Shown: positions 12,277 through 30,776, numbered from the stretch's first letter. The stretch is 64,000 bases of DNA from Candidatus Aldehydirespirator sp. (GCA_965221185.1 OZ244866.1:2390901-2454900), one strand, 5' to 3'. The notes: a model not told the origin generated them from the letters alone. Numbers and translations: made by a program.

Positions 12277-12279
12277 GGC

Positions 12280-12666: not shown

Positions 12667-13815
12667 ATGACAGACGTGTACCTCGATTACAACGCCTCGG
12701 CGCCGCTCGATCCCAGGGTGTTCGAGGCGATGGTGCCGGTGCTGTCAGGCGAAGTGGGAAACGCTTCCTCGGTGCACCGGTTCGGCCGCCGCCAGGCCGC
12801 GGCGGTGAACGAGGCCCGTGAGCACGTTGCGGCACTAGTGGGTGGGCGGCCGGCAGGGGTCGTCTTCACCGCGGGCGCAACAGAGGCCAACAACTTGGCT
12901 CTGCGGGGCGCGGTGGAGGCTGCCCCCGCAGGCCGGAAGCGGATGCTGGTGTCGGCAGTGGAGCACGCTTCGGTGGGCCGCACGGCGCGCTGGTTGGCCG
13001 ACTGCGGCCTAGTCAAGCTGGACGTGATCGGTGTGACCGCGGGCGGCCTCGTGACGCCCGACGCTGTGGAGGACCTGGTCGGGGACGACGTGGTGCTGGT
13101 GTCGGTGATGGCAGCCAACAGCGAGACCGGTGTGCTTAACCCAGTGGGCGAAATCGCCGAACGGGTGCGAGCCACGGGGGCACTGTTTCACTGCGACGCC
13201 ACCCAGATGGCGGGCCGCCTGCCGTTCGACATGGAGGCACTGGGGGCGGACCTGGTGTCGGTCAGCGGCCACAAGATCTGCGGACCGGGCGGGGTCGGCG
13301 CCCTGGTGGGCTCCCGCCATGCCTTGCAGAGGCTGGCGCCGGTGATCCACGGCGGTGGTCACGAGCGAGGCCTGCGCTCGGGCTCACTTAACGTCGGCGG
13401 GATTGTCGGGCTGGGCACCGCGGCACGCATCGCCGCCGACGAGCGGGAGTCGGAGTCGGCCAGGGTGAAGGTCCTGCGCGACCGACTGGTGGCCGAGTTA
13501 GAGGCAAGGCTTACCGGCGTGCGTCAGAACGGAGACCGGTCGAGACGGCTGTCGAACACAGCCAGCATCCACTTCGACGGCGCCGACGCCGAGGCGGTCA
13601 TGTCCAACATGGACCCCGTAGCCGTGTCCACCGGCAGCGCCTGCAGCGCCGGGTCGATCGAGCCGTCGGAGGTGCTGACAGCCATGGGCCTGTCCCGCGA
13701 CGCCGCCTTCGAGTCGGTGCGCTTCAGTCTCGGCCGCTTCACCACCGAAGCCGACATCGACGCGGCTGTGGAAAGCGCCGTCGGCGCCGTAGAGCGCGTC
13801 CGCGCCATGACCTGA
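12667..13815 (+). CDS. Cysteine desulfurase (class V aminotransferase; IscS/NifS/DndA type), candidate SspA/DndA partner
   Basis: PLP-lysine motif SVSGHKICGPGG and active-site loop STGSACSAGS. It lies 0.7 kb upstream of the sspBCD-like genes. Confidence 0.8.
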   Translation: MTDVYLDYNASAPLDPRVFEAMVPVLSGEVGNASSVHRFGRRQAAAVNEAREHVAALVGGRPAGVVFTAGATEANNLALRGAVEAAPAGRKRMLVSAVEHASVGRTARWLADCGLVKLDVIGVTAGGLVTPDAVEDLVGDDVVLVSVMAANSETGVLNPVGEIAERVRATGALFHCDATQMAGRLPFDMEALGADLVSVSGHKICGPGGVGALVGSRHALQRLAPVIHGGGHERGLRSGSLNVGGIVGLGTAARIAADERESESARVKVLRDRLVAELEARLTGVRQNGDRSRRLSNTASIHFDGADAEAVMSNMDPVAVSTGSACSAGSIEPSEVLTAMGLSRDAAFESVRFSLGRFTTEADIDAAVESAVGAVERVRAMT

Positions 13816-13851
13816 TCAGCCGAGGCCCGGCTCGCCGAGTTGTGTGAGCGG

Positions 13852-14037
13852 CTAGGCGGACTCGGGTGGAGGAGACGGGAACGCGAGCCTGAGAACGCGC
13901 TCGCTCTCGGCCTCATCGTAGGCATCCGCCATCCGGCGCATCCTCTCCCGCTCCTCCTTGGTCGGAGGCCGCGGCGGCACCGAAAAGTCCAGCTTGAACA
14001 CGAGGCGCTGGGGACCAAAGACGGGAATGAACTTCAT
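13852..14037 (-). CDS. Small hypothetical protein (61 aa)
   Basis: A GAGGAGGAA RBS precedes the ATG. The ATG overlaps (ATGA) the stop of the C-terminal frame of the upstream DUF3467-like gene. Confidence 0.4.
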   Translation of the reverse strand: MKFIPVFGPQRLVFKLDFSVPPRPPTKEERERMRRMADAYDEAESERVLRLAFPSPPPESA

Positions 14038-14326
14038 GATAGTTCCTCCTCATCAGGGGGGCGTGATGTGAACCTACCATATTCTTCCTCAAACTGGGCG
14101 ACGTGGTTGGATATCTGCTGGGCCAGTTCCCATGCCACCGTGGCGGAAGCTTCATCCATGCGACGTAAACCGCGTCCGGCAGTTGCGCCCCCTCGCGAAG
14201 CGACACGGCGAACTCCAAGGTGAACTCCAAGCCGGTGTGCCAGACGCTCACAACGTTGGCGTGCACGGCGCCGAGGGGAACGGAGCCGTCCACACGGATA
14301 CTCGGCGTTGAGTCACCAGATGACAT
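14034..14326 (-). pseudogene. DUF3467-like gene split by a frameshift near 14156-14164
   Basis: The N-terminal frame gives IRVDGSVPLGAVHANVVSVWHTGLEFTLEFAV. A second frame, offset by 2 nt, gives RMDEASATVAWELAQQISNHVAQFEEEYGRF and stops at 14034-14036. Together they resemble one DUF3467-type protein as recalled. Confidence 0.5.
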
Positions 14327-14494
14327 CGAAAGATATCCGATCTACCAAGACGAGGGCGAAGCGACACCTCGCGCCGCCGCGGCGCTGGACCCCACCCTCC
14401 ACCGCGGACGCGACCGCCGCGGCTGCGGTGCCGGGGGCGTCCTAGCTGCTGACTATGTTGAAGGCATGACCGAAGGGACTGCGGGGGCTGGCCG

Positions 14495-15523
14495 ATGAGG
14501 CTGGCGGACATGGCCGAGCGCTCGTTCGCCCGCCATGAGACGTTCCATCCCCGCTACGGCTGGTTCCGCAAGGCCTACGCCTTCGTCGCTGACGAGGGGA
14601 ACGACTTCAACCAGGAGGACGCCCCCATCATTATCGGCGTGGGCAAGAACATGGTGCGGGCTATCCGCTTCTGGGGCCTAGCCGCGAAGCTGATCGTCAG
14701 GGGCCAGCAATCACGGAAACCTCGAACGCCGAGTCTCGATCCCACCCGGCGCGGCCGCGCTCTCTTCGGCGAACAGGGATGGGATCCCTACATGGAGGAT
14801 CCCGGAACGCTCTGGCTGCTGCACTGGTTGCTGCTAGCACCCCCCACCCAACTTCCGGTGTGGTGGCTTGCTCTCAACGAGTTTCACGCCGTCGAATTCG
14901 AAGATGCTGACCTTGAGGAGGCCATCAGCACTCACCTGGAAGCTGTAGCAACGTGGAAGCCGCCCCACCCGTCGTCGGTCAAGAAGGACATCAGCGCACT
15001 GGTTCGCACATATGCGCCAGCGCCTCGATCCGACCGCGCCGGCATCGACGACGTCTTGGACTGCCCGCTACGCGAGTTGAACTTGCTGGGGCGCTCGGCC
15101 GCGACAGGCAAGTACCGGTTCACGCTTGGGCCGAAGCCGACGCTGCCCTCGGCAATCGTTGCGCATGCCGTGCTCGACTACATCGACCGTACCGGCACCG
15201 GCGGGAACACGGCCACCCTAAGCCGCCTCGCCCACGAGTCCGGCGCCCCCGGCCGGGCGTTCAGGCTCACCGAAGCCGAGTTGCTCGCCGCACTACAACC
15301 CACGGTGGAGCGCAATCGCGCCTTGAGCCTCGCGACTCCGGCGGGTGTGGCGCAGCTCGCCTGGTCAGGGGAACCCGCGGCTATCGCCACAACGATCCTC
15401 GACGACTACTACGGGACATCCGCAACCGAGGTCTGCTCGGGGTGCATTGGCGACGTGTCCGTCGGCAACCGCCGCGCTGTGGGGGCCATGAGCCGAGTTC
15501 GCTCCGCCGCGGGAGTTCGATGA
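14495..15523 (+). CDS. sspB: DUF4007-family protein, SspB-like
   Basis: The N-terminal FARHETFHPRYGWFRKAY signature matches the DUF4007 family as recalled. It is followed by a large ATPase and a PAPS-reductase-like gene, as in Ssp loci. Confidence 0.75.
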   Translation: MRLADMAERSFARHETFHPRYGWFRKAYAFVADEGNDFNQEDAPIIIGVGKNMVRAIRFWGLAAKLIVRGQQSRKPRTPSLDPTRRGRALFGEQGWDPYMEDPGTLWLLHWLLLAPPTQLPVWWLALNEFHAVEFEDADLEEAISTHLEAVATWKPPHPSSVKKDISALVRTYAPAPRSDRAGIDDVLDCPLRELNLLGRSAATGKYRFTLGPKPTLPSAIVAHAVLDYIDRTGTGGNTATLSRLAHESGAPGRAFRLTEAELLAALQPTVERNRALSLATPAGVAQLAWSGEPAAIATTILDDYYGTSATEVCSGCIGDVSVGNRRAVGAMSRVRSAAGVR

Positions 15524-18500
15524 TGACCATGCTCGCAGACGGCATCTCGGTGGGGAGCCGCTTCGCCCGCTCGGCGAACCTGGAACGCGACATCGCCCAA
15601 TCCGAGCCGCTCGACGGGTACGTCGTCACCGCTCGAGCCCTCGATGTGATTGAGCGAATCGCTTCTACGGCCGCTACAGGGGCTGCTGGCGGAGCCTGGT
15701 CGCTGACTGGGCCCTACGGATCGGGAAAGTCTTCGCTGGCCCTCCTGCTTGATGCTGCCCTTGGCACCCGCTCTGAAGTCCGGCACGCGGCGCTGAAGCT
15801 CATCGACGATGCCTCAGCCGCCGTCGGAGATCTGCTTCGGAAGGCCCACCATCGGTATGGAACCGAGGACTGCGGCTTCCATCGCGGACTCGTGACCGCC
15901 GGGCGGGAGCCGCTCAACCGCACGGTGCTGTGGGCACTCCACAGGGCAGTTCTGCGCAGCTACGGCAGCATTCCCTCGCCCAAGGGATTCCGGGCTGCCG
16001 AGACATTGCGAGGAGCGCTTGAAGATGCTGAGACGGACGACCCCCGACGCCCTGGCCCATCGCCCTCTGCTCTCTTGGAAGTCGCCCGCTGCCTTGCCGA
16101 AGACGCCCCGCTGCTGTTGGTCATCGATGAGTTCGGAAAGAACCTCGAGGCGATCCGCGACGGCGGCAACGCCGACCCCTACCTGTTGCAGCAGCTAGCG
16201 GAGGCGGGTCAGGGCTCCGGCTTGCCCATCTTCGTGCTGACGCTGCAACACCTGTCGTTCGAGGACCACATGGCCGGTGCAGACGGCCCGCAACGCCGAG
16301 AGTGGGCCAAGGTCCAAGGCCGCTTCGAAGACGTGACTTTCGTCGAGTCAGCCGGGCAGACGCGCGCCCTCATCGGAACTGTCTTCGACGTCCAAGATGA
16401 CTCGCTCAGGGCTCGGATCAACGGGTGGGCCAGCGTCCAGGCCAAGAGGATGCGGGCACTGGGCGTCGCCGATCTCGCTGACCCGAAGACGGTGGCGTCC
16501 TGCTACCCGCTGCATCCATTGGCGGCGCTGGTCCTGCCCGAGTTGTGCAGCCGGTACGGCCAGCACGAGCGCACGCTGTTCTCGTTCCTGACCGGACCGC
16601 ACTCCGCGAGCGCTTCTTCGTTCCTTGCCTCTACCGAGTTGCCCGTTCATGGGCGTCCTCCGTCGCTGGGCCTCGAGGCTGTGTACGACTACTTCGTCGG
16701 CAGCAGCGCGCTCAACATCGAGTCCGCCCGTCTGTCAGGCCGATGGACCGAGATCGCCACGCGACTGCGCGACTCCCACGGACTCACGCCATCGCAGGCC
16801 CGGCTGGCTAAGGCGATCGCCCTTCTCAATCTCGTGTCCACAACGGGAACGATCCGGGCATCCCGACAGCTGCTCGCGTTGACCGACAAGAGCGGAAACG
16901 GAGCTCTGGCCAAACTGGAAGACGCGGGCGTGGTCACCTACCGCGACTTCGCCGACGAATACCGGATCTGGCATGGAACAGACGTCGACATCCAACTCCT
17001 CCTTGATGCGGCCCGCCGCCGGATCGAGCGGCAGCCGCTGGTGGAGATCCTCTCCGATATCGATCAGCCGCAGCCGGTCGTCGCGGCTCGCCACAGCGCG
17101 GAGAATGACGTCCTTCGTGTGTTCCATAAGCGCTATGCCAGTTGCGAGGAGCAAGTAGAGCCCGTCGACGCCTTCTCCCGATACGACGGCGAAGTGTTGC
17201 TGGTGGTGGACTCGCACCGTCGTACACCGACCATGGCCCGGCCATCGGCGACGACCAAGCCCATCGTGGCAGCGATACCCGGCGATGTGACTGACCTAGA
17301 CGCAGCCGCCCGGGAGGTCGCTGCCGTGAAGGACGCCCTCAACGACCCCTCGGTCGCAGAAGACTGGGTGGCGCGACAAGAGCTGAGCGAGCGCCTGGCC
17401 CAAACCCGAGTCGCCTTCGACCAAGCCCTCGCCGACACCTTCCACTCAGATGCGTGCGAGTGGATTCTGCTCGGAATCGAGGATGGCCAGAAGCTCCGAC
17501 GTGGGCGGGGAACCGCCGCGCTGTCCGATGCAGCCAACCGTGCGTACTCCAACACCCCGATGATCCGCAACGAGATGCTCAACCGAACTGTGCTCACGTC
17601 GCAAGGGGCGAAGGCCCGAGCAATTCTCCTCAAAGCAATGATCGAGCACGGGTCTGACCCGGACCTCGGCTTGAAGGGCTACGGACCAGAAGTCGCCATG
17701 TACCGGGCCTTCCTGCATGGCACCGGGCTCCACGACGCCGACGCCATGGGCTTTGGTGAGCCATTTGATGACTCGCTGCAACCGGCTTGGAACATGCTTC
17801 AAGAAGAGTTCAAGCGAGCGACAACCCGGCGCGTCAATCTGAACGACATTTACGCAGCACTGCTGTCGCCAACATACGGAATGAAGTCCGGTGCCATCCC
17901 CGTATTGGTCACCGCCGCGCTGATCGCCGCTTCCGATGAGATCGCCATCTACGAGCACGGCACTTTCAAGCCGTTGCTCACATCCGAGTTGTCCGAACGG
18001 ATGGTGCGCAACCCCGGCCACTTCGACATCAAACACTTCGCCAACACGACCGGCGCCCGCGAGCAAGTCGTGCAAGCACTCGTGGACCGGCTCAAGCCGC
18101 AGTCCCACTTCCGTATGCATCGGGTCGCCAACGTGCTTACTGTCGTCGGACATCTGGTGTCCCGAATCAGCCGACTCGACAACTACACCCTCCGTACGAG
18201 GAACCTTGAGCCCAAGACGCTGAGGGCGCGGGAGGCACTGCTAGCCGCTGTCGAGCCCGATGAGTTGCTCTTCATGGCCCTTCCCGAGGCTCTCGGATTC
18301 CGCCCGGTGCCCGCCCACACAAAGACCTACTCGAAGGCAAGCGCCTACGCCGTCGAGGTGGCAGTCGTAGTGGACGAACTAACCAGCAACTACGAGCGGC
18401 TCCTGAGCCAACTCCTGAAGCTGCTGCTCGATGCCAGCGCCGAGACCACCCGCTTGGCCGTGATGGGCCAGGCCGACGCTCTAGAGGGCGAGGTCCTCGA

Positions 18501-18993
18501 TCCCGACATGCGGGCGTTCGTGCTCACTCTGGCAAGCGACAGCATCAAGGCCGATTTCGACTGGGCGAAGGCTGTCGCCACCGTCGTCGCCAAGAAAGCG
18601 CCGGCGGAATGGACTGACCACGACCTGCTGCACTTCCGACGCGAGATCACCGAGCAGTTCGGCGCATTTCACCGGCTCATGGCTCTCCACGCCGAACACC
18701 GGGCCTGCGGTGGCGGCGCCTTCAAGCCCTTCCGCGTGACAGTGACCAGCGCCGACGGCAACGAGCACGCCCGCCTCGTCGGGGTCGACCAGGCGCTGCG
18801 TCCGGAGGCCGAGAGAGTTCTGAAGACCGTCCTCCAAGAACTCACCAAGATCACAGGATCCCCCTTACGAGCGCACCACGCCCTGCTAGCGCTGCTGGGG
18901 GAGCGCCTGCTACCCGACACGGCCACACCCGCCGAAGAGTTGCTACTATCCGAAATATCCGATCTATCCGGGAGTCGATTGGGCCATGGCTGA
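15520..18993 (+). CDS. sspC: Large P-loop NTPase, SspC-like (1157 aa)
   Basis: The ATG at 15520 overlaps the sspB stop (ATGA). Walker A GPYGSGKSS and Walker B LLLVIDEFGK are present. The tracked ORF's 189 upstream codons overlap sspB and are discarded. Confidence 0.7.
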   Translation: MMTMLADGISVGSRFARSANLERDIAQSEPLDGYVVTARALDVIERIASTAATGAAGGAWSLTGPYGSGKSSLALLLDAALGTRSEVRHAALKLIDDASAAVGDLLRKAHHRYGTEDCGFHRGLVTAGREPLNRTVLWALHRAVLRSYGSIPSPKGFRAAETLRGALEDAETDDPRRPGPSPSALLEVARCLAEDAPLLLVIDEFGKNLEAIRDGGNADPYLLQQLAEAGQGSGLPIFVLTLQHLSFEDHMAGADGPQRREWAKVQGRFEDVTFVESAGQTRALIGTVFDVQDDSLRARINGWASVQAKRMRALGVADLADPKTVASCYPLHPLAALVLPELCSRYGQHERTLFSFLTGPHSASASSFLASTELPVHGRPPSLGLEAVYDYFVGSSALNIESARLSGRWTEIATRLRDSHGLTPSQARLAKAIALLNLVSTTGTIRASRQLLALTDKSGNGALAKLEDAGVVTYRDFADEYRIWHGTDVDIQLLLDAARRRIERQPLVEILSDIDQPQPVVAARHSAENDVLRVFHKRYASCEEQVEPVDAFSRYDGEVLLVVDSHRRTPTMARPSATTKPIVAAIPGDVTDLDAAAREVAAVKDALNDPSVAEDWVARQELSERLAQTRVAFDQALADTFHSDACEWILLGIEDGQKLRRGRGTAALSDAANRAYSNTPMIRNEMLNRTVLTSQGAKARAILLKAMIEHGSDPDLGLKGYGPEVAMYRAFLHGTGLHDADAMGFGEPFDDSLQPAWNMLQEEFKRATTRRVNLNDIYAALLSPTYGMKSGAIPVLVTAALIAASDEIAIYEHGTFKPLLTSELSERMVRNPGHFDIKHFANTTGAREQVVQALVDRLKPQSHFRMHRVANVLTVVGHLVSRISRLDNYTLRTRNLEPKTLRAREALLAAVEPDELLFMALPEALGFRPVPAHTKTYSKASAYAVEVAVVVDELTSNYERLLSQLLKLLLDASAETTRLAVMGQADALEGEVLDPDMRAFVLTLASDSIKADFDWAKAVATVVAKKAPAEWTDHDLLHFRREITEQFGAFHRLMALHAEHRACGGGAFKPFRVTVTSADGNEHARLVGVDQALRPEAERVLKTVLQELTKITGSPLRAHHALLALLGERLLPDTATPAEELLLSEISDLSGSRLGHG

Positions 18994-19834
18994 AGCAGTC
19001 CGTCACATCTGCGGTATCTCCGGCGGTAAAGACTCCAGCGCGCTCGCCGTCTACTTGCGGAACCGAGTGCCCGACATGGAGTACTTCTTCTGCGACACCG
19101 GCGCCGAGTTGCCCGAGACCTACGAGTATCTGACCCGCCTGGAGGTGATCCTCGCCAAGTCCATCGTGCGGCTAAACGCGTCGCGGGGGTTCGACCACTG
19201 GTTCGAGGTGTTCCGGGGGACGCTGCCGTCGCCCCAGATGCGGTGGTGCACCAAGAATATGAAGATCAAGCCCATCGAAGAGTGGATCGGCGACGAGCCA
19301 GCCGTGTCCTACGTGGCGATCAGGGCCGACGAGTCCAACCGCAAGGGCTACATCTCCACCAAGCCCAACATCGAGACCCGCTTCCCGTTCGTGGAGGACA
19401 GCGTCGATCACGCAGGTGTGATGAGGATCCTCCACGACGCCGGCATCGGCCTGCCCGCCTACTACGAGTGGCGGACTCGCTCAGGCTGCTACTTCTGCTT
19501 CTACCAGCGCAAGGCCGAGTGGATCGGCCTCGCCGAGCGCCACCCCGACCTCTTCGACCGGGCGGTAGCCATCGAGCAGAAGGTCCTCCAAGACGCCGGA
19601 GTCAACGGAGACGCCGACTTCGGCGACCGGGCCATGCGAGGCCGCCAGTACACATGGTCCGGCGGGGAGACCTTGCTCCAACTCCGCTCCCGACGTGAGC
19701 AGATCCTCGAGCGCCATGACGCAGCCATGGCCCGAGCCAACAAGACAAGGGCCAACCTCCCCCTCATCGAAGCGCTTGCCGACGCCTTCAACGAAGATGA
19801 CGACACCGAGGCCTGCACCGTCTGCGCGCTATGA
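18986..19834 (+). CDS. sspD: PP-loop / PAPS-reductase-family protein, SspD (DndC-like)
   Basis: SGGKDS PP-loop at about 19016-19036. Cys pairs CYFC and CTVC are present. There is an 8-nt overlap with sspC. Confidence 0.75.
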   Translation: MAEAVRHICGISGGKDSSALAVYLRNRVPDMEYFFCDTGAELPETYEYLTRLEVILAKSIVRLNASRGFDHWFEVFRGTLPSPQMRWCTKNMKIKPIEEWIGDEPAVSYVAIRADESNRKGYISTKPNIETRFPFVEDSVDHAGVMRILHDAGIGLPAYYEWRTRSGCYFCFYQRKAEWIGLAERHPDLFDRAVAIEQKVLQDAGVNGDADFGDRAMRGRQYTWSGGETLLQLRSRREQILERHDAAMARANKTRANLPLIEALADAFNEDDDTEACTVCAL

Positions 19835-22380
19835 CAGGCGCTGCCTCACCCGTACGACAGGACTCCGACGGCAATCACTACTGGACCTTCATTGTCAGCA
19901 ACACCCACCTCCAGAGCAATCGTCGGATAGCGTTTCCGCAAGACGTGGCAGAGGCTCTTGGTTGCAAGCCAGATGCTGTCACTCGCATAGCGGTGGAGAA
20001 CCCTGCGGGCTGCCGCAAGCTAATGGTGCTCTTGGAGCGGAGACCATCTGCAAGAACGATCATTCTCCATCTCGCCGAACCTCTCAGGAGACTGAACGCC
20101 GCCCAGGAGCAGTTGATCGATCTTGTGGTCGCTGGTCCAAGACGAGTGGTATTGAGGCCGAGCACACGCTCAATGCCATTGACCTGGGGAGCTAGACCCA
20201 GAAACTCCAATCCAGGGACTCCGGGGCCAACTCGGACCGCAGCACCTGCGCGGCCAGCACCATGGGGCAGTCCACCTACGCCCCTCCTGCCGGCCTGGCA
20301 CTTGGACGCGCTAGCGGCGGTCTCTCTACCGTCCGACCTAGTGACTCTGCTGGACGGCGAGGCCGGCGAGACCCAGTTACGCTCCATCGGCGATCTTGTC
20401 GGTTTCTGGGAGTCGCGAACGGAACCCGTCGGAATAGAAGCCCGCCGCGCTCTGTCGCGCATAGTGAGGCAGCAGCGCTGGCCGCCGAAAGACCACATAG
20501 TAATTCCCAGCGAAGCCGAGGCCGTCCATCTATTGGAATGCCCTCTCGGGCAGCGTGCGACAAACTGCGTCAGCAGAGCGGTGGCTGACAGAAGACTCAA
20601 GACCGAACAGCCTGTGACAGTTGGTTGGCTCTTGTCGTTGCAGAACTTCGGCATCGCCTCCTTGCTGGAGGTCATGTGTGTCGCAGAAGCTGCCGTCGAG
20701 AGCGGATTCTTGACAGGGCGGCCCGCATCGGCACCCGATCAACCGGCTACGTCACCGAAGCCCTCCGAGCCTCCAGACCCATCGATAACCACATGGAGTT
20801 TCGCGATCCCCCTGCTGAAGAGGCTTCTCGCTGGCTCGGCTGAGTTCTACGGCGCACACACCCTAACCGACGCACTCACCTGCGATCTCGGAAGGATCAT
20901 CTCCGAACTGCACATGGAGGACCCTCTCAACGGCCTTCTCATCTGCGACCTTGCCGACAGGCGAACCTTCGCGGAAGAAGCGGTTTCTGCCGTGACAGAG
21001 TTCTGGGAAGCGCTGTCACCGATAGAACGACTCATCCTCGAGGAGCGCGTACTCGCGCCAGAGCCGCTAAGCCTTGTAGAGATCGGCCGGAAGACAAGCC
21101 TCTCTCGGGAACGGATTCGTCAGATACAGAAGCCCCTAGAGGCCAGGTTGCGCCAATCCCGCGATGTTGACGGTGACGTCCGATCCTGGGTGAGCTTCGT
21201 CGGGGCCACGATTCGCCATCATGTCGGCCCGATCGTGGCCGAGAGGGATCTGGAGGAGCGCATTACGCGGGCGTTCCCGGATGTGGAGACCGCGGAGGCG
21301 GACAAGTCTGTCATGCCCATCGCGCGGCAACTGCTTCGAAGGGAACTTGGATACGCCTGCCATGGTGGAGTCTGTTTCGACGACGCGGCGTCCGAAGTAG
21401 TCAAGGGTCTCAAGGACTCAGCCCGCTGTATTGCGGATGATACCGGGCTCATCGACGAGCGAGATCTGCGAGCTCGCCTGCCCGAGGAGACGTGGCAGCA
21501 GCACTGGGCCGTCCTCTTGGCGCGGTGCGGCCTCTTGCGCCTTAGCGGCCGGCTGGCACTGCGGGACACAGCGAAGGCCCGGGCTAGGGCGGCGCTGATT
21601 TCGATTGGCCGGCCGGCAACAAAGGAAGAAGTAGCGCAACAGAGCGGGCTGGACTCCGCCCGCGCTGGTGCACAACTGTCGGCAATGGACGGCGTGGTGC
21701 GGGCCGACAAGAACCGGTGGGGCCTTGCAGAGTGGATCGACGACGAGTACGAGGGAATCGCCGCAGAGATCGTGCAGCGCATCGAAGAGGACGGCGGAGC
21801 GACGCGCCTAGAGAGGCTGCTCGAAGAGTTGCCCCGTATGTTCGAAGTGAGCGAGAATAGCGTTCGTTCATATATCGCGACGCCGAAATTCTCACTCAAG
21901 GACGGCTACGTCAGCGCAGCCGATTCATCTTCCATCAGGCTTCGGTCCCTCGCTGACGCCGTCCACGGTCACACGGTTGACGGGCGGCCATACTGGCAAT
22001 TCAGAGTGGAGGACCGATACTTCGATGGCTACAGCCTGACCGGACTGCCACCTGAGATAGTAAAGGCACTTGGCTGTGAGCCGGACGGGCGGGTACGCGT
22101 TCCGATCTCGGAACCCACTGACTGCAAGCCCATTTCGGTGAGCTGGCCGCTCGCCTCTAACGCCGGCGCCAACATTGGATATCTCTCTGAGCCGCTGCGC
22201 CGGCTCGGCGCGCGCGGCGGCGAGCGTGCCCTGTTCGTCATCGACAGCCCCGAGAGCGTCTCGATACGGCTCGAGACCCCCGTCATCGACGAGGAGGCCA
22301 CCAAAGAAGTAGACGCGGCATCCTTCGAACGGGGGCATAACTTCCTAGAGCGGATGAAGAACAGGCGCCGGGCGCTGTGA
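19831..22380 (+). CDS. 849-aa multi-domain DNA-binding protein (sigma-70 region-4-like HTH, HARE-HTH-like winged helix, duplicated terminal domains)
   Basis: ATGA overlap with sspD. LSLVEIGRKTSLSRERIRQIQKPLEARL resembles sigma region 4. VVRADKNRWGLAEW resembles the HARE-HTH C-terminal strand. The N- and C-terminal ~95-aa segments share YW.F.V, ALGC.PD and EPLRRL. Confidence 0.55.
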   Translation: MTGAASPVRQDSDGNHYWTFIVSNTHLQSNRRIAFPQDVAEALGCKPDAVTRIAVENPAGCRKLMVLLERRPSARTIILHLAEPLRRLNAAQEQLIDLVVAGPRRVVLRPSTRSMPLTWGARPRNSNPGTPGPTRTAAPARPAPWGSPPTPLLPAWHLDALAAVSLPSDLVTLLDGEAGETQLRSIGDLVGFWESRTEPVGIEARRALSRIVRQQRWPPKDHIVIPSEAEAVHLLECPLGQRATNCVSRAVADRRLKTEQPVTVGWLLSLQNFGIASLLEVMCVAEAAVESGFLTGRPASAPDQPATSPKPSEPPDPSITTWSFAIPLLKRLLAGSAEFYGAHTLTDALTCDLGRIISELHMEDPLNGLLICDLADRRTFAEEAVSAVTEFWEALSPIERLILEERVLAPEPLSLVEIGRKTSLSRERIRQIQKPLEARLRQSRDVDGDVRSWVSFVGATIRHHVGPIVAERDLEERITRAFPDVETAEADKSVMPIARQLLRRELGYACHGGVCFDDAASEVVKGLKDSARCIADDTGLIDERDLRARLPEETWQQHWAVLLARCGLLRLSGRLALRDTAKARARAALISIGRPATKEEVAQQSGLDSARAGAQLSAMDGVVRADKNRWGLAEWIDDEYEGIAAEIVQRIEEDGGATRLERLLEELPRMFEVSENSVRSYIATPKFSLKDGYVSAADSSSIRLRSLADAVHGHTVDGRPYWQFRVEDRYFDGYSLTGLPPEIVKALGCEPDGRVRVPISEPTDCKPISVSWPLASNAGANIGYLSEPLRRLGARGGERALFVIDSPESVSIRLETPVIDEEATKEVDAASFERGHNFLERMKNRRRAL

Positions 22381-24653
22381 GTGCTTTGGCCTCTGAGCCC
22401 ACTATGCAGCCCGGGCTATATCGCCTGCCCGAAGCCCCTATCGGAGAGAACGTGCTCATTCCGGGATTCCGCGCTGCGAAGTCGGTTCGCGGGGCGTTCG
22501 GATGGTTCACCGCAGGATGGATTAGGCAACTCGCGCACGGCCTAGCTGAGTACCTCAACCGGCAAGACACAACACCGATTACCTTCACCGTGGCGCCAAT
22601 CATGTACCCGAGAGAGCGTGATGCGATCGAGGCTGCGCAGACGATGACGGCCGAAGAGGCCGCCCAGCGCGTTGCCGAGGTGTTCATTGACGGGCGGCTT
22701 GAAGCGGACGCCCTCGGCCGCCACGCCTTGGACTGCCTGGCTTGGATGCTCGCCGCAGGCCGCCTTTACTTGCGGGTCGCGATTCCCAGGCCCGGATCGA
22801 ACTACCATCCCAAGCTCTGGCTCTTCGACGACGGCGAGCACCAAGTCCTAGTCAGAGGATCCGCCAACGCCACCGGCCGCGGCCTCGACGGCGCCGTGGA
22901 GCACATGGACGTCGATGTCTCCTGGAGCGAGCACGGGCAAAGACGTGTCAGGGCCGGAGTCGCAATGCTCGACGACTGGGAGCACGGAAGAAGCCTCGGC
23001 ATAGAACGCGTCGTGGGCATGCCGGACGCCCTCAAAGAAGGAATCGTCAAGACCGCGCCCACAACGCCACCCTGCATCGAGGACTACTACTGGGCCCTTC
23101 CCAAGGCCGCGCCCCCTCCCAGCAGCCGAGACTCGAGCGCAGAGCGACTGGAGAAGCTGCGCTCCCGGTTCGGTCCTCGGCTCGCCCAAGATCCGCCTCG
23201 GCTGCGCATACCCGATTGGCTGGAGTGGCAGACCGGCGACTATGCGCACCAAGGAGAGGCCGTCGCCGCGTGGGAGTCGGCCGGCGAGCGCGGGACACTC
23301 GCCATGGCTACCGGCGCAGGCAAGACACTCACAGCTCTCGTGTGCGTAGCACGCGCTCAGGAGCGCATAGACGAAGCGCTTCTTGTCATCGTTTCGGCGC
23401 CGTCAGTGCCTCTCATCAGCCAATGGCGCGAAGAGATCCAACACTTCGGCGTAGAAGCGGCCACCCCCACCCTTGCAGCGAACACCAACAGTGCGATCAC
23501 CAACCTGCTCCGCTCCCTTGGCGCGGGCGGCACACACATAGCGGTGGTCACTAACAACCTGCTGTGCGATCCCGCCTTCCAGAGAACAGCAGTTGGCCTG
23601 ATCGACAACGCGCCCGGCCCGGTCGCCACCATGCTGATAGCCGACGAAGCGCACACACTCGGAGCCAAGAGCTTCGTCGCGAACAAGCCTGAGTTCTTTG
23701 AGCGGCGCCTCGCATTATCAGCCACCCCGGAACGCCAGCACGACCCCGACGGCACCGAGGAGATATTCGAGTTCTTCGGCCCGCAGGTCTACGAGTTCGG
23801 GCTCGGCCGGGCCATCGGGTTCTGTCTCACGCCATACGACTACCACGTGCACGCCACAGTTCTCGACGACGACGAGCTGGACGAGTTTCACGAGTTGACG
23901 AAACGGATAGGACGAATAGCATCCCGACTTCGGGACCAACTCCAAGACGACACCGCCCTCAAGGGCCTGCTAATCAGGAGACGCAGAATCATTGAGACCG
24001 CCGAGGCGAAGCTCCCTTTGTTGCGAGAGGTCCTGAATCGCCGAGGGCCACGGTCCCTCAGACACGCCCTCGTGTATGCGTCCGCGAAGAACCCCGAACA
24101 ATTCGACCGCATCGCCGCGGCCCTCACGGACCTAGGGGTCCATTGGGCGTCCGTAACTCAGGAGACGACGGCAAGGCCCCGCAAACTCGACGACACGCTG
24201 AAGCTGTTCGCAGACGGTGGCTTGCAGATCCTGCTTGCAAAGAGAGTACTCGACGAAGGCGTGGACATTCCAAGCACCCGGGAAGCGTTCATCGTCGCAT
24301 CGTCTACGGTCGAGCGGGAATGGATCCAGCGGCGCGGCCGGATCCTGCGCCGGCATCCTGGGAAAGCGCACGCAGTTCTACACGACTTCCTCGCGCTGCC
24401 CCCGGTGCAGTTGGTCCGAAGCGCGGGCGACTCTGACAAGGATCTCAAGCGGATCGTCCGCAGCGAGTTGTCCCGCGCGTTCGCCTTCGCCGCGCATGCC
24501 CGCAACGGCGCAGGCAGCGACGGCGTCCTCGCTCACCTTGAACTAATCAAGAGCGCCTACTGGCCGGGACCTGAGCACCGGGCCCTGTCGATCCTGCAGG
24601 CCCCGGGCGATCATCTGATCGACCCGTCCACACCCGAGGGGACACCATGGTAA
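22377..24653 (+). CDS. HKD phospholipase-D-family nuclease domain fused to SF2 DEAH helicase (758 aa)
   Basis: GTGA overlap with the upstream gene. Single HKD motif HPKLWLFD...GSANAT (codons from 22806). Helicase motif I MATGAGKTLTAL and motif II LIADEAH are present, with a C-terminal RecA-like domain (ILLAKRVLDEGVDIP, QRRGRILR). Confidence 0.75.
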   Translation: MSALASEPTMQPGLYRLPEAPIGENVLIPGFRAAKSVRGAFGWFTAGWIRQLAHGLAEYLNRQDTTPITFTVAPIMYPRERDAIEAAQTMTAEEAAQRVAEVFIDGRLEADALGRHALDCLAWMLAAGRLYLRVAIPRPGSNYHPKLWLFDDGEHQVLVRGSANATGRGLDGAVEHMDVDVSWSEHGQRRVRAGVAMLDDWEHGRSLGIERVVGMPDALKEGIVKTAPTTPPCIEDYYWALPKAAPPPSSRDSSAERLEKLRSRFGPRLAQDPPRLRIPDWLEWQTGDYAHQGEAVAAWESAGERGTLAMATGAGKTLTALVCVARAQERIDEALLVIVSAPSVPLISQWREEIQHFGVEAATPTLAANTNSAITNLLRSLGAGGTHIAVVTNNLLCDPAFQRTAVGLIDNAPGPVATMLIADEAHTLGAKSFVANKPEFFERRLALSATPERQHDPDGTEEIFEFFGPQVYEFGLGRAIGFCLTPYDYHVHATVLDDDELDEFHELTKRIGRIASRLRDQLQDDTALKGLLIRRRRIIETAEAKLPLLREVLNRRGPRSLRHALVYASAKNPEQFDRIAAALTDLGVHWASVTQETTARPRKLDDTLKLFADGGLQILLAKRVLDEGVDIPSTREAFIVASSTVEREWIQRRGRILRRHPGKAHAVLHDFLALPPVQLVRSAGDSDKDLKRIVRSELSRAFAFAAHARNGAGSDGVLAHLELIKSAYWPGPEHRALSILQAPGDHLIDPSTPEGTPW

Positions 24654-24862
24654 GCAACTATGACCGCATTTACCTTGAAATACAGAAGGAGGCCAAGCGT
24701 GTCGAGCGAGAACATGGCGTGCCAGCAGATCCGCTAACCGAGCTGGTGATGGGGATAGTGGACACCGAGGACCGCAATCGGATTAGACCGCTGGGAAACG
24801 TCAAGCAGCGAATAGAGAACATGATTGCCGACGCCTCTCGTGCGCATACGCGGGACCCGTAG
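24647..24862 (+). CDS. Small hypothetical protein (71 aa)
   Basis: Its ATG overlaps the helicase stop by 7 nt, and it ends 8 nt before the next gene. No motif was recognised. Confidence 0.4.
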   Translation: MVSNYDRIYLEIQKEAKRVEREHGVPADPLTELVMGIVDTEDRNRIRPLGNVKQRIENMIADASRAHTRDP

Positions 24863-24870
24863 GAACGGCC

Positions 24871-27108
24871 ATGCTGACAATACACCGCGTCGAGATCAAG
24901 GACTTCGTGTGCTTTGATCGTCTCGTCATCGAACCGTCCGCTGTCTCCGACAAGCCCTTGACGGTCATACGCGCCGAGAACAGTTCCGGCAAGACGACCT
25001 TCTTGCGGGCCGTCCGTTGGGGCATGTACGGCGAGAAGGGACTTCCGGGCATCGCGTCGCGGTTCCCTCTGCATCCAGCCTGGTGGAGCCCAGACCGACC
25101 CGCCATGGAAACCAGCGTGTCAATAGAATTCGAGACAGACGGATCCAGCCGCAACTTCGAGGCGACAGGGGCTACACCGTCACGGTACCTGCTCTGCCGG
25201 ACTGTGAGAACAATCGGAAAGCCCGAAGCGAGAGATGACGAACCCGACTTCCACCGTATCGAAGAAAAGGCCACCCTTATGGTGCGGGCTCTCGACGGCC
25301 AGTGGGGCACGCATGAGCAGTCCCCGGACGCGGTAGTCGCTGAACTGCTGCCATGGGAGTTGAGAGACTTCTTCATCATGAACGCCGATGAGGCCGCCGA
25401 CTTTGTCGGCGGTAGCGAGAACAAGCCCGTATCTCGGCAGGAATATCGGGCCAAGACAACTGACGCGATCAATAGCTTGCTCGGTCTAGAGGTGTTCAAG
25501 AAGGCCCGCGACCGGGTTGAGGAAATCGCCCGAGGATTTGCAAAGAAAGCCACCAACGCCATTGGCGATCGCGATCTAATCGAACTCCAAGAAAAGCTGG
25601 ATGAGAGGAGAGCACGCAAGCAGAAGACCGAGGAAGCGATCCAAGAGTTGAAGGGCACGGAGGCAGACCTAGCCGACAGTCTCGAACAACTTGAGTCGGA
25701 TCTCGAGGAAGAGATCGGGCGGCTAAGCGCCTACGACACCTGGAGTGAACGGCTCGGCAAGAACCGTGAGGAGCACAAGTCGGCAGTTTCCGAACGCGCC
25801 AACTTCGTCGCCGACCTTGCAGGCAGCCTTGAGTCGCCCGACTTACTCGCTCGATTGGCGTCTGTGGCGATTATGTCGACCCACAGGTTCCTCGAACCGC
25901 TGCATGAACAGGGGCGTATACCCGTCGCCCATCTCTCGTTCGTCCGCAGCCTGCTGCAGCAGGGCCGATGCGTCTGCGGACAGGACCTCTCAGAAGATAG
26001 CGATCATCGGCGCTGCGTGGAGCGAAGGGTCGCTGAAGCAGATCAAGAGGCAGCTAGAGCCGGTTACCTGTACCACCTCTATCAGGCGACGCTGTCGCTG
26101 CACGGCCTGGCAGAGACCTCTGATTGGAAGAACAAGCGCGCCCGCCATGCCGCCAATCTCGCCCTCTGCGATAAGCGAATCTCTGACTTGGAAACTGAAG
26201 AGAAGGATCTCGATTCTAGGCTGGCCGACATCGAAGAGGAGAAGGTACAGACCGCCAGGGACGAGATAGCAGCCTACAAGATTCAACTCGAAACAGTAAG
26301 ACGGGATCTGACGCTTCTCGAAGCGACAAGGCGGCAACTGGAACAAGAAATAGACCCGCTTGTAAAAGAGATCGCCCAGCGGCAACGCAACGAGCAAGCG
26401 GCAACTGACCTTCGTATCGCAGAGGAAATGGCACAATATGCGGTCGATCTTCTCGACCGGGCCTACTCAACCATCGAACAAGACCAAGTGAACGCCTTGT
26501 CAGAGCGGATGAACCTGCTCTTTCAGCAGATGGCCGCCAACGTCTCAGACGCGGACTTCTCTGAGGCCCACCACAGCAAAGCCAATCTCCGTATGATCAC
26601 AAGAGTGGGCGTGCGACCTGTTGAAGGCAGGATCGGGAGCTTCGAGATCTACGCATTGAATAACCGTGCACGTGCCATGACGCCAGTCCAAATCAACGGT
26701 GCTTCGCGGCGCGTACTTGCTCTCTCCTTCGTGCTAGCGCTCTGTGACGAATCGAATACGCAGGCACCGCTCATCGCTGACTCACTACTCAATTTCTTGT
26801 CCGGTTCAGTGCGGCATAACACCCTGAGAGTGACTTCGGAGCACTCCCGGCAGCCGATCCTATTACTCACAAACTCAGACCTAGAGGCGTCCACAGAGGT
26901 AGCGGTAGTAGAAAGACACGCCGGAGCCACTTACACACTTACCGGCCAATGGGACGCTATTGAAGCCGGTACGGGCGGGGACGTAGTTCGTCGGACCCAA
27001 GACAAGTTGGTAGCGCTACTGTGCTCATGCGGGCCTCGCCAGCATTGCGACATCTGTGAGCGCACCGGACAAGCGGAAGCTGTCGGCTGGACAAGACGAC
27101 ACAACTAA
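24871..27108 (+). CDS. DndD-like SMC/ABC-type ATPase with long coiled coil (745 aa)
   Basis: An AGGAA RBS is present. The N-terminus IHRVEIKDFVCFD...AENSSGKTTFLRAVRWGMYG carries Walker A. A central coiled coil follows. The C-terminal PLIADSLLNFLSGSVRHN...PILLLTNSDLE parallels the DndD P.IIDTPLgRLD..HR...vilLsTDeE block as recalled. A CSCG...CDIC cluster sits at the C-terminus. Confidence 0.65.
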   Translation: MLTIHRVEIKDFVCFDRLVIEPSAVSDKPLTVIRAENSSGKTTFLRAVRWGMYGEKGLPGIASRFPLHPAWWSPDRPAMETSVSIEFETDGSSRNFEATGATPSRYLLCRTVRTIGKPEARDDEPDFHRIEEKATLMVRALDGQWGTHEQSPDAVVAELLPWELRDFFIMNADEAADFVGGSENKPVSRQEYRAKTTDAINSLLGLEVFKKARDRVEEIARGFAKKATNAIGDRDLIELQEKLDERRARKQKTEEAIQELKGTEADLADSLEQLESDLEEEIGRLSAYDTWSERLGKNREEHKSAVSERANFVADLAGSLESPDLLARLASVAIMSTHRFLEPLHEQGRIPVAHLSFVRSLLQQGRCVCGQDLSEDSDHRRCVERRVAEADQEAARAGYLYHLYQATLSLHGLAETSDWKNKRARHAANLALCDKRISDLETEEKDLDSRLADIEEEKVQTARDEIAAYKIQLETVRRDLTLLEATRRQLEQEIDPLVKEIAQRQRNEQAATDLRIAEEMAQYAVDLLDRAYSTIEQDQVNALSERMNLLFQQMAANVSDADFSEAHHSKANLRMITRVGVRPVEGRIGSFEIYALNNRARAMTPVQINGASRRVLALSFVLALCDESNTQAPLIADSLLNFLSGSVRHNTLRVTSEHSRQPILLLTNSDLEASTEVAVVERHAGATYTLTGQWDAIEAGTGGDVVRRTQDKLVALLCSCGPRQHCDICERTGQAEAVGWTRRHN

Positions 27109-27120
27109 AGGACCGCCACC

Positions 27121-27615
27121 ATGAGCTACTTTGTTCAACTGCTATCCCAGAAGGCACATACGCTGCGCCTGCCGCGCAAGTACACGGCTGAAGTTCAACG
27201 GTATGTGCTAACACACCAGACCGCAGCGACCCACGACAGAGCGCCCTTCCGCCGCCAGCTCGACTTCTGGGCCTTCAGCGTTGCCACTGCGCTTGCCCGA
27301 GAACTGGCACCACTCAATGGGCCGTCATCACAGTGGGGGGACAAGTTCGTCGACACCCGCAACGTTGAGATGCCCAAGGAACTGTGCGACCTGCTCGCCG
27401 TCGCAGCCTTCCACCAACTGGGTGCGGAACACGACCAAATCAACGACGCTGCACAGATCATCGAGATAGGCAACCGCCTCGCCGGAGCGGGATGCCCTGG
27501 AGTACTGGAACAACTCGGCAGCCGCGATCTTCGCCTGACTCCGTTGGAGAAGGCCCTTAACCACGCCGCATTAACGCTTGCAGACGTCGTCACCTACCCT
27601 GAGCCAAGCATATAG
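27121..27615 (+). CDS. 164-aa helical protein, possibly DndE-superfamily / dnd-associated small protein
   Basis: AAGGA RBS and a 12-nt gap after the ATPase. The pattern APFRRQLDFWAFSVATAL ... LLAVAAF ... IIEIGNRLAGAGCPGVLEQL resembles small helical proteins found next to DndD-like ATPases. This recollection is weak. Confidence 0.3.
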   Translation: MSYFVQLLSQKAHTLRLPRKYTAEVQRYVLTHQTAATHDRAPFRRQLDFWAFSVATALARELAPLNGPSSQWGDKFVDTRNVEMPKELCDLLAVAAFHQLGAEHDQINDAAQIIEIGNRLAGAGCPGVLEQLGSRDLRLTPLEKALNHAALTLADVVTYPEPSI

Positions 27616-27619
27616 GCGG

Positions 27620-28468
27620 TTACTTTCCCATTTGACGATCAAGAGTCTCTAGTACTAGTTGAACTACGCTGCAGGCTTCGCGAACCACAAAGTGCGCGAC
27701 ACTCGGCCCAACCGCAGTTGGCAAAATCCTCCCATGTCCTGTTCCCTCATCGTTTCGAAGTCTGTTCGTCATCTGAGCGATCTCCCACGATGACTGGAGA
27801 ATGGCACGAAGCTCCTTGGCTCCGACCTCATTCAACTTCACCTGCTGAGGCAATATGCCTAACCGATCTCGGGCATGATGCCACAATTCATCAAACGATG
27901 TGCTCGGTCGATATGGGACGCTGAAAGCCTTGCACACATACTTCGCAGTCGACTCAAGCATTTCTTTCGCCGTGCCTAACATCAGAGCTGGATCATCCGA
28001 GGCACGCCGAAGACGATTGAGTTGATCCTCAATTGCTGGACGACCTGTCGTAGCCACAACAGAGGCCACGCCAGCAGGATGAAGCTCACCTTCGTCGGTT
28101 AACTCCCAACTGATCCGCGCGAAGGCTGCCCTAGCCCGCTGGCGGAGGCTCTCAAGCCTAGAGTCCGATGTCTCGTCTCCTTCGAAGAAACCGACGGCTC
28201 GATATTCCGCGAGGAGCCCTTCGACGAGTTCGCGCGATCCTTCAGGTTCGCGCACCGCTGCAAGGATCGTCCGTCGAACGCGGTCTTCTTTGTTAGGTTG
28301 CAGGTTCGGGTCATTGCGATCATAGGGCGCGGCAGCTCCGAAGCCCGATCGCGTGAATACTCCGGTTAGGACACTATGGGTTGGGCCAACGCCACCGGAC
28401 ACGAAAGCACCGAGCGTTGCCCCAACCTCATTACTCACAGGGTGCCGTGCCAACGAGACCCTCCTCAT
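27620..28468 (-). CDS. Abortive-infection C-terminal (Abi_C) domain protein
   Basis: ALMLGTAKEMLESTAKYVCK ... LQSSWEIAQMTNRLRNDEGTGHGR ... AHFVVREACSVVQLV matches the Abi_C pattern (..aKellEs..K......l....RN..g.aHG...A....a) as recalled. The gene is AT-richer than its surroundings and is convergent with the Ssp operon. Confidence 0.6.
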   Translation of the reverse strand: MRRVSLARHPVSNEVGATLGAFVSGGVGPTHSVLTGVFTRSGFGAAAPYDRNDPNLQPNKEDRVRRTILAAVREPEGSRELVEGLLAEYRAVGFFEGDETSDSRLESLRQRARAAFARISWELTDEGELHPAGVASVVATTGRPAIEDQLNRLRRASDDPALMLGTAKEMLESTAKYVCKAFSVPYRPSTSFDELWHHARDRLGILPQQVKLNEVGAKELRAILQSSWEIAQMTNRLRNDEGTGHGRILPTAVGPSVAHFVVREACSVVQLVLETLDRQMGK

Positions 28469-28919
28469 CGTCCTGCACTCGTCGGCCGCGTGTCAGAAAG
28501 AGCCGCCTGCGAACTCTCCAGGAGACTATCGGGCTGTCTTTTGATTCGTGAGGCATCTTGGCCACGTCGTCGCCGTTCGAGTCCTCCACCCTCCACAGCT
28601 CCCGGCTCGTTGCGAGGCACACGAACGGGAACCCAACCCGGACACTGCGGCCCAGGCGATACCTGTGCATCAGCAGCTTCAGGTCGAGTTCGGCCTCGCT
28701 GAACGACACCCGGGTGGGCCGCCCCCCGGCCAGGCGTCCGATCAGCCACAGCAGGAGCAGCGGCTTGTACGGGGCCGGGCGTCCTTGTCCCTGCTGGCGA
28801 ACCGCCCGATCGACTCGACCTTGCCGACCCTGTTAGCGCTCACAGACCCAGTAGTCGGCCCGCTCCGGCACATCCACATCGTCGGTCCACCATCGGTCCA
28901 CTGCCCTACCAGCCGGAGG
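28431..28919 (-). pseudogene. Decayed ORF with KPLLLLW...FPF..L...ELW domain (N-terminal module of modification-dependent HNH-type endonucleases?)
   Basis: One frame reads WWTDDVDVPERADYWVCER, then a stop (TAA, plus-strand 28833-28835), then QGRQGRVDRAVRQQGQGRPAPYKPLLLLWLIGRLAGG...VGFPFVCLATSRELWRVEDSNGDDV. The frame then runs into the Abi gene start, and no catalytic domain follows. Confidence 0.35.
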
Positions 28920-28959
28920 CTAAGGCGCCGATCATACCCACGGCCGCCCCACCGCTTCG

Positions 28960-30768: not shown

Positions 30769-30776
30769 AGAGTCCC

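Follow-up and report, generated by a model that had tools for sequence, protein, structure and literature searches.

X is an 849-amino-acid protein encoded by an open reading frame (ORF) that starts with ATG and occupies positions 19831..22380 (+) of a 64,000-nucleotide stretch of DNA from Candidatus Aldehydirespirator sp. (GCA_965221185.1 OZ244866.1:2390901-2454900), here called the window. The gene stands between a complete SspABCD phosphorothioate (PT) writer module and a Pbe-like cassette. Our preferred reading, which we hold with about even confidence, is that X serves in a Pbe-type restriction complex as a non-catalytic subunit for DNA recognition and scaffolding, the complex being coupled in this organism to the SspABCD writer; it consists here of the HKD nuclease/superfamily 2 (SF2) helicase PbeA, the small PbeB, the CxC ABC ATPase PbeC and a protein in the PbeD position. 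As part of it, X probably guides or licenses the PbeA nuclease-helicase. The gene is translationally coupled on both sides: its start overlaps the stop codon of SspD (ATGA, 19831-19834), and its stop overlaps the GTG start of the gene for PbeA (GTGA, 22377-22380), a start that is supported by the conservation, in homologs, of the residues encoded just past the GTG. No catalytic family was detected in X with the Pfam, NCBIfam or PADLOC models. Pfam and NCBIfam recognized sigma region 4 alone, PADLOC gave no match even at E<=10, and the homologs are all named 'hypothetical'. A library of viral structures gave no significant match. The original prediction for this stretch had noted that no characterized protein with such an architecture was known to it, and we found no end-to-end family match in PADLOC, Pfam or NCBIfam; all of the peptides that it cited are found in the translation of the ORF.

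A word-indexed search returned 32 clusters of X homologs, all unnamed, and an AlphaFold2 model of X built on 32 homologs is confident (mean predicted local distance difference test, pLDDT, of 81). The model and the profile searches together place, in this order, a B3-like pseudobarrel, a helical region with a helix-hairpin-helix (HhH) domain similar to the C-terminal domain of the alpha subunit of RNA polymerase (alpha-CTD; RNA polymerase, RNAP), a sigma-70 region 4, four tandem winged helices, a second B3-like pseudobarrel and a short basic tail. The sigma-70 region 4 had been called correctly: Pfam Sigma70_r4 (PF04545) matches residues 394-434 of X at 28.6 bits, for a gathering score of 24.1, as well as 32/32 of the scanned homologs (best E=4.8e-11), and a family profile of residues 314-446 matches solved sigma-70 region 4 structures at E=3.8e-13. 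The alpha-CTD-like domain was not recognized in the original prediction. Run against the PDB, a family profile of residues 140-297 picks out 27 different alpha-CTD sequences (best E=0.0086); the remaining matches are three unrelated chains, all at E>=1.2. X itself is not matched by Pfam RNA_pol_A_CTD (PF03118), and 4/32 homologs are matched weakly (best E=0.014); distant relatives of X exceed the cutoff of the same model, at 25-56 bits. In the family alignment RERIRQ (residues 426-431) is invariant, and R242, N245, C246 and G274 of the alpha-CTD-like domain are nearly so, as are the residues of the HhH motif R-x-x-N-C ... N-x-G-x-x-S-L; we take RERIRQ to be the -35-contacting residues of sigma-70 region 4.2 and the four residues to be the '265 determinant' of alpha-CTD. 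Sigma region 2 was found by Pfam neither in X nor in its homologs, and the NCBIfam sigma models scored far under their cutoffs, over region 4 only. Since both sigma region 2 and the alpha N-terminal domain are missing, X can be counted neither among the sigma factors nor among the subunits of RNAP.

The first and last domains of X are true paralogs, as proposed originally: residues 13-112 and ~727-826 are 32% identical over 100 residues without gaps (BLASTP, single comparison, E=4e-18), far above chance. In the AlphaFold model each has seven strands and two helices (pLDDT 80-92), and the N-terminal barrel has the topology b-b-a-b-b-b-a-b-b. Foldseek matches these domains to the plant B3 domains of VRN1, At1g16640, TEM1, FUS3, LEC2, VAL1 and NGA1, and also to the B3-like domains of the restriction enzymes LlaJI.R1 (N-domain, 6c5d) and BfiI (2c1l, 3zi5), with target-normalized template modeling (TM) scores of 0.48-0.56 and probabilities of 0.99-1.0 (4i1k, 1yel, 7et6, 6j9b, 6j9c, 6c5d, 2c1l). 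The predicted structure and the Foldseek matches support a B3-like fold for the terminal domains, in line with the earlier suggestion of B3/EcoRII-N-like barrels. The Pfam models for B3 and EcoRII-N match neither X nor its homologs, and a sequence profile of the terminal domain returned nothing significant from the PDB; searched against 5.8 billion proteins, the profile of the B3-like domain found six short fragments only and is uninformative on other architectures. An AbrB-like barrel, the other option offered, was not borne out, the fold matching B3 instead. The AbrB/MazE type appears only marginally (MazE_antitoxin in 2/32 members, E=0.15; 7xi6 C56, E=0.3), and in place of its swapped hairpin, a homodimeric half-barrel of ~50 residues, the domain in X is predicted to be a single-chain barrel of ~105 residues that matches B3 structures. 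Among the 79 related loci described below, the N-terminal barrel is optional (only ~9/79) and the C-terminal barrel is nearly universal in the clade (~73/79).

A dedicated model of the winged-helix region (wH1-wH4) reached a pLDDT of 86.6, and Foldseek matched it to the tandem winged-helix arrays of UFL1 and SelB (E 1e-4 to 7e-4). The domains wH3 and wH4 are the best-conserved part of X, with a mean pairwise identity of 0.63-0.68 per domain, and the segment VVRADKNRWGLAEW, cited originally as the mark of a HARE-HTH module, is the wing of the third winged helix, inside this most conserved region. Membership of the HARE-HTH family was not confirmed. HARE-HTH (PF05066) is not among the first 25 of the 36 Pfam families matched when 32 copies of the region were scanned at E<=10, and a profile of the region found no match in the PDB. 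Aligned by hhalign to a hand-entered sequence of Bacillus subtilis RpoE, X gave a probability of 38.7% and its distant relatives one of 3.6%; delta-subunit structures are absent from the top 50 Foldseek matches of the winged-helix model. The unit of three helices and a hairpin seen in the model is the winged-helix fold, a feature generic to all winged helix-turn-helix (wHTH) domains, and Pfam, the PDB profile, hhalign and Foldseek support no more than a generic winged helix, one of a tandem series.

The C-terminal tail of X covaries with the effector module. In the model, the tail is a disordered stretch followed by the basic C-terminal helix FLERMKNRRRAL. A tail of the form LLERMKxRRR(xL) is found in 47/49 loci that have PbeA directly downstream, and in the two exceptions (L067 and L074) the PbeA-like genes are divergent and X is without its C-terminal barrel. 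The LLERMK tail is found in 0/16 of the loci in which X precedes genes for a GIY-YIG nuclease, a DndB-like protein and an SNF2 helicase, most of which have a tail of the form GVRTAxPLxxRL.

These loci belong to a set of 79, obtained by scanning one genome per species and classified by mapping the proteins of the window onto them. They come from Acidimicrobiia, Gemmatimonadota, Acidobacteriota, Latescibacteria, Gamma- and Alphaproteobacteria, Rhodothermales, Chloroflexota, Spirochaetia and Planctomycetota, and the gene order around X is conserved across about ten phyla. Across the set, X occurs with two alternative modification modules and two alternative effector modules, linking one of the former to one of the latter. 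In type I (31 loci) the order is SspABCD - X - PbeA - (B) - C - D; in type II (16 loci) a module of a PAPS-reductase-like protein, a DndA-type cysteine desulfurase, a GHKL ATPase (PADLOC candidate PDC-M33A), M33B and DUF6339 adjoins X - PbeABCD; and in type III (16 loci) SspABCD - X is followed by the GIY-YIG, DndB-like and SNF2 helicase genes. PbeA lies directly downstream of X in 49/79 loci, and the GIY-YIG set does so in 16/79. The rest are truncated contigs, or orphan or decayed copies of X beside housekeeping genes. Loci with neither Ssp nor Pbe neighbors were considered as a further type of system and rejected; they look orphan or decaying because the genes around them are housekeeping genes or system remnants.

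Several features of these loci deserve mention in their own right. The type II module, which replaces SspABCD and also includes a 505-amino-acid protein, is found at L043:1912-9631 and in L038, L040, L044, L047, L053, L058, L059, L064, L069, L078, L082, L085 and L094, and is a candidate alternative sulfur or PT writer. The type III effector set, with its small GIY-YIG nuclease (L014:12830-16355; L164:12619-16127), may be a further Ssp-linked restriction module, which we did not find described in the searchable literature; two genes for SBD-HNH proteins (SBD, sulfur-binding domain), that is, ScoMcrA-type PT-dependent nucleases, lie within 10 kb of one type III SspABCD-X locus (L164:18792-19736 and 21840-22622, -). 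A proline-rich motif, WGSPPTPLLPRW, is present in X from 27/47 Ssp-linked loci and from 0/16 type II loci, and the L014 homolog has two copies of it (L014:10022 and L014:10589). Finally, the clade occurs almost only in metagenome-assembled genomes with sponge-symbiont names (Poriferisocius, Poriferisodalis, Spongiisociaceae, Poriferihabitaceae, Aldehydirespirator and others). Such names across about ten phyla suggest horizontal spread within one habitat, the habitat being read from the names alone.

In many Pbe/CxC cassettes the first gene encodes a member of one broad family, of which X is the version specific to its clade. The winged-helix array (wH1-wH4), used as a profile, matches 1,582 clusters at 50% identity (E<=1e-3), 284 of them at E<=1e-30, a count that takes in members with architectures other than that of X: some are tandem arrays of the unit, others have the alpha-CTD and sigma-4 domains. 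Relatives made of 5-11 tandem copies of the wH2-wH3 unit include P0034, P0036, P0042, P0060, P0066 and P0068, and sigma-4 is absent from P0034, P0036 and P0060 (scanned) and from P0066. When metagenomes were scanned with a PbeA alignment and the loci sorted by the identity of their PbeA to that of the window, X was directly upstream in 9/9 loci with PbeA at least 53% identical. At 26-33% identity, 18 of the ~35 loci with sufficient upstream DNA have a protein of 950-1340 amino acids encoded immediately before PbeA. Each of the 18 is matched by the profile of X residues 314-446, and among the eight scanned with Pfam, seven have Sigma70_r4 and four RNA_pol_A_CTD; the same scan included a ninth protein, from L132, which is an ordinary sigma factor encoded downstream of PbeA. 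Between X and the upstream proteins, homology extends from sigma-4 through wH3 (hhalign probability 96.7%, E=3.5e-10, 236 columns). Two of the distant loci (L160 and L161) have, in order, the X-like protein (1171-1281 amino acids), PbeA with an overlapping start, a 66-67-amino-acid protein, an ABC ATPase, a 154-amino-acid PF27807 'dnd_assoc_4' protein and a radical-SAM-like gene, with no PT writer genes in the annotated context; toxin-antitoxin genes are found nearby (L160:10001-20041 and L161:10001-19752). The X and PbeA genes, or X and GIY-YIG genes, overlap in distant loci too. Altogether, at least 76 loci (49 genomic, 27 metagenomic) have a member with the X architecture immediately before PbeA, with PbeA down to 26-33% identity. 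From its place after the PT writer genes, the original prediction took X for a plausible PT-status sensor or specificity subunit. The position directly after SspD is as stated, but X belongs with the downstream Pbe cassette, because relatives occur with another modification module, with another effector or with no PT writer.

How might X act? We suggest that X would contact duplex DNA through several modules at once, namely one or two B3-like barrels, sigma-4, the alpha-CTD-like HhH domain and the four winged helices, and would dock onto the effector through its short C-terminal tail, and that it would thereby position or license the nuclease-helicase on DNA without the mark of the host. On its domain content X is predicted to bind DNA; it would touch PbeA or PbeC, and it may discriminate PT-modified from unmodified DNA. 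B3-like pseudobarrels are the recognition heads of EcoRII, BfiI, NgoAVII and LlaJI, and BfiI and NgoAVII pair such a domain with an HKD/phospholipase D (PLD) nuclease. By this precedent, nuclease and recognition domain would here be split over two polypeptides.

Several observations weigh against this reading. The B3-like assignment is drawn from predicted structure, and Foldseek gave it modest E-values (5e-3 to 0.3), a consequence of searching with all 849 modeled residues at once. Pfam detected no sulfur-binding domain (DNA-SBD_ScoMcrA) in X or its homologs, and the 50 best Foldseek matches of each of the two models of X include no SBD structure. Five loci with PbeA 38-48% identical to that of the window have SspABCD together with PbeA, PbeC and PbeD in the absence of X, about half of the distant PbeA loci with sufficient upstream DNA have no detectable X-like gene, and several short X genes stand alone beside housekeeping genes. 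In the X-less loci the Ssp genes run straight into PbeA (L091-L093), lie on the opposite strand (L087) or lie downstream (L088); the pairing of Ssp with Pbe was not found named in the PT-defense literature examined (compare PMC8092258). Since such loci exist, X is not universally required to couple Ssp to Pbe, and we reject the idea of an obligatory adaptor. Together with the lack of SBD similarity, they also disfavor a strict adaptor or PT-reader role, and the PT sensing proposed originally has no direct support.

X could instead be a transcriptional regulator, a controller or autorepressor comparable to the C proteins of restriction-modification systems or to DndB of dnd operons, which would time or limit the toxic nuclease relative to the writer genes through promoter-bound sigma-4 and alpha-CTD. 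Both are promoter-binding modules in which the DNA-contact residues are conserved (RERIRQ, R242, N245, C246 and G274), and the gene sits exactly between the modification and the restriction genes. However, the X proteins (850-1280 amino acids, 7-9 domains) are far larger than known controllers, and there is no adjoining intergenic promoter region, since the genes overlap. Moreover, the stop codon of X overlaps the effector start even in very divergent cassettes, which fits a stoichiometric subunit, and the tail covaries with the effector protein rather than with a promoter. We therefore regard a regulatory role as rather unlikely. The same two modules allow a different scenario, in which X mimics the upstream promoter-reading apparatus of RNAP and acts as an infection sensor, either as a decoy that draws off phage factors directed against sigma-4 or alpha-CTD or by steering the nuclease-helicase to strong promoter-like sites (-35 plus UP element) in incoming DNA. 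The joint presence of the alpha-CTD-like and sigma-4 domains in one polypeptide across a deep family is in keeping with this idea, as is the retention of what we take, by E. coli numbering, to be the residues that contact the -35 and UP elements; in addition, the distant cassettes without a writer need other means to tell invader from host. Yet the conserved contact residues may reflect generic DNA binding only, sigma region 2, which binds the core enzyme, was not detected, there is no evidence of contact with RNAP or with a phage protein, and the version in the window sits in a classical modification-restriction layout. Mimicry of this kind is unlikely in our estimation, and we are equally hesitant about its extension to the whole family, in which the proteins with alpha-CTD, sigma-4 and winged helices would be defense sensors built of promoter-reading parts that trigger or steer PbeA.

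A role on the modification side would make X a specificity or loading factor that chooses the PT sites for SspBCD, or for the alternative PAPS-reductase/DndA/GHKL module. The overlap of the X start with the SspD stop, the confinement of the WGSPPTPLLPRW motif to Ssp-linked versions and the inheritance of the SspBCD-X-Pbe block as one unit all point in this direction. Against it, characterized SspABCD modifies DNA without an X-like protein (PMC8092258), X-like proteins accompany PbeA in cassettes that have no writer genes, one clade of X serves two unrelated writer modules, and the tail of X follows the effector, not the writer. This makes a writer subunit very doubtful, and we retain a recognition and scaffold subunit of the Pbe-type complex as the preferred reading.

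The published Pbe model has no DNA-recognition component, and 83.9% of sspBCD loci are without a known restriction partner (PMC8092258). For the way in which Pbe/CxC-type and Ssp-linked restriction modules find their targets, the X family supplies a specific candidate, as the part that recognizes DNA or acts as scaffold. X ties two sulfur-modification modules to two effector modules, and what is exchanged for this purpose appears to be the docking tail at its C terminus. If the preferred reading is right, X would add a fifth component to Pbe systems, would define new Ssp-based defense types (SspABCD-X-PbeABCD and SspABCD-X-GIY-YIG/DndB-like/SNF2) and would show that the promoter-reading domains of RNAP have been reused in immunity. 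Should X instead prove to be a sensor built of RNAP parts, it would be the missing self/non-self or infection sensor of Pbe/CxC cassettes, including those without modification genes.

The coordinates of X, of its domains and of the neighboring genes are collected in Table 1. The window has SspA, SspB, SspC and SspD, followed by X and then by the Pbe-like cassette. The start of SspC was placed from the 1156-amino-acid gene called in the syntenic locus L163, a close relative. The models for SspE, SspF, SspG and SspH in PADLOC were matched by none of the nine window proteins scanned. In the cassette, PbeA scores 340.6 bits with TIGR04095, under the 600-bit cutoff of that model. The published PbeABCD system has four parts: first an HKD-SF2 helicase, then a protein that is small and disordered, third a CxC ABC ATPase, and last a cognate of DndE (PMC10853773). 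The 71-amino-acid ORF in the position of the second matches no PADLOC model even at E<=10, and a gene of 66-72 amino acids is called in the same position in L160, L161 and L163. The 164-amino-acid protein in the PbeD position has no match in Pfam, PADLOC (even at E<=10) or the PDB; an identity as DndE or dnd_assoc_4 was considered and is not supported, with no PDB match and no pairwise similarity to the PF27807 protein of the distant cassettes.

Table 1. Features of X and genes of the Ssp-X-Pbe locus, in window coordinates
Feature	Position	Strand	Evidence
SspA (cysteine desulfurase)	12667..13815	+	PADLOC E=3.6e-130; Pfam Aminotran_5
SspB (DUF4007)	14495..15523	+	PADLOC E=4.4e-99
SspC (BrxC-like ATPase)	15523..18993, start approximate	+	PADLOC SspC 1035 bits in ORF 14953-18993
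SspD (PAPS reductase)	18986..19834	+	PADLOC E=2.9e-108
Gene X, 849-amino-acid multi-domain predicted DNA-binding protein, no enzyme domain detected	19831..22380	+	ORF and translation
N-terminal B3-like pseudobarrel, residues ~8-112	19852..20166	+	Model topology, Foldseek, paralogy with C-terminal copy
Short linear motif WGSPPTPLLPAW, residues 145-156	20263..20298	+	Nearly invariant in family alignment; in 27/47 Ssp-linked loci and 0/16 type II loci
RNAP alpha-subunit CTD-like HhH domain, residues ~230-297	20518..20721	+	Family profile against PDB
Sigma-70 region 4 helix-turn-helix, residues ~380-445	20968..21165	+	Pfam PF04545 and profile against PDB
Four tandem winged helices (wH1-wH4), residues ~447-700	21169..21930	+	Dedicated model, Foldseek
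C-terminal B3-like pseudobarrel, residues ~712-816	21964..22278	+	Model, Foldseek, dedicated alignment
C-terminal tail ending in basic helix FLERMKNRRRAL, residues 817-849	22279..22377	+	Tail comparison across loci
PbeA-type HKD nuclease and SF2 helicase	22377..24653	+	PADLOC PbeA E=1.7e-156; Pfam ResIII, Helicase_C; NYHPK motif
71-amino-acid ORF in PbeB position	24647..24862	+	ORF listing; position conserved
PbeC-type (DndD-like, CxC zinc hook) ABC ATPase	24871..27108	+	PADLOC PbeC E=8.2e-41; Pfam AAA_23; CVC motif in coiled-coil region
164-amino-acid protein in PbeD position	27121..27615	+	Conserved downstream of PbeC in most loci

Compared with L163, the block from SspB to PbeD (window 14453-27497) has 67-71% nucleotide identity, and the flanks, 10354-14292 (including SspA) and 30461-34095, have 88-98%. 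Judged from these identities, the SspB-SspC-SspD-X-PbeA-B-C-D block looks to have diverged or been exchanged as one unit, which also speaks for the preferred reading. The ~3 kb that follow the cassette (window ~27500-30460) have no counterpart in L163; this stretch has an Abi_C (abortive infection C-terminus) gene at 27620-28468 (-) and may be an extra defense insertion. Upstream of SspA, by synteny with L163, are genes for a very large DUF2339 membrane protein (5878-11379, +) and an ankyrin-repeat protein (11407-12276, -).

The modules of X are all of known DNA-binding types, and the combined protein belongs to a large family that we have not found described; X appears as an Ssp or Pbe component in no library model and nowhere in the searchable literature. 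The fold predicted for its barrels is the same seven-stranded, two-helix pseudobarrel as in the restriction B3-like domains (EcoRII N, BfiI C, NgoAVII R and LlaJI.R1 N) and in plant B3, and the nuclease that goes with them in BfiI and NgoAVII is an HKD/PLD enzyme, like the one encoded next to X. Unlike these, the barrels of X have no detectable sequence relationship to B3, stand at both termini and belong to a chain separate from the nuclease. With the HARE-HTH family (RNAP delta N-domain, ASXL and restriction-fused versions), wH3 shares the winged-helix fold and a wing motif, '...RWGLxEW', that resembles the one of RpoE delta and is set in register by hhalign; Pfam and the PDB give no match, and the top Foldseek matches are generic tandem winged-helix arrays. 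DndG/DptG, SspB/DUF4007 and BrxA are likewise non-catalytic wHTH arrays in modification-restriction operons and are read as target-recognition parts (PMC10853773, PMC12839542). In PglW and BrxL, alpha-CTD-like, wHTH and sigma-HTH modules are interpreted as DNA-binding parts: in the central region of PglW three wHTH come after a helical domain of the alpha-CTD-like kind, and BrxL contains a sigma-HTH (PMC12839542). Thus, X shares with DndG, SspB and BrxA the non-catalytic winged-helix array within such an operon, and with PglW the alpha-CTD-like domain ahead of the wHTH domains, although the modules of PglW are fused to a kinase and a nuclease and X is free-standing. X has no PADLOC match to any of the four, and adds a full sigma region 4 and the B3-like barrels. 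To the sigma-70 region 4, and probably to the alpha-CTD, of bacterial RNAP the homology is at the level of sequence, with the DNA-contact residues conserved, but modules that RNAP splits between two subunits are joined in one chain of X, along with wHTH and B3-like domains. As to PbeABCD/CxC itself, X matches none of the components PbeA-D (no PADLOC Pbe match at E<=10) and is absent from the published component lists, which name four components, with methylases and MTaX1 as optional additions, and nothing like X (PMC10853773). The genes downstream of X, in contrast, match PbeA, a PbeB-position ORF, PbeC and a PbeD-position protein, and while published Pbe is paired with DndCDEA, the Pbe-type cassette of the window is paired with SspABCD.

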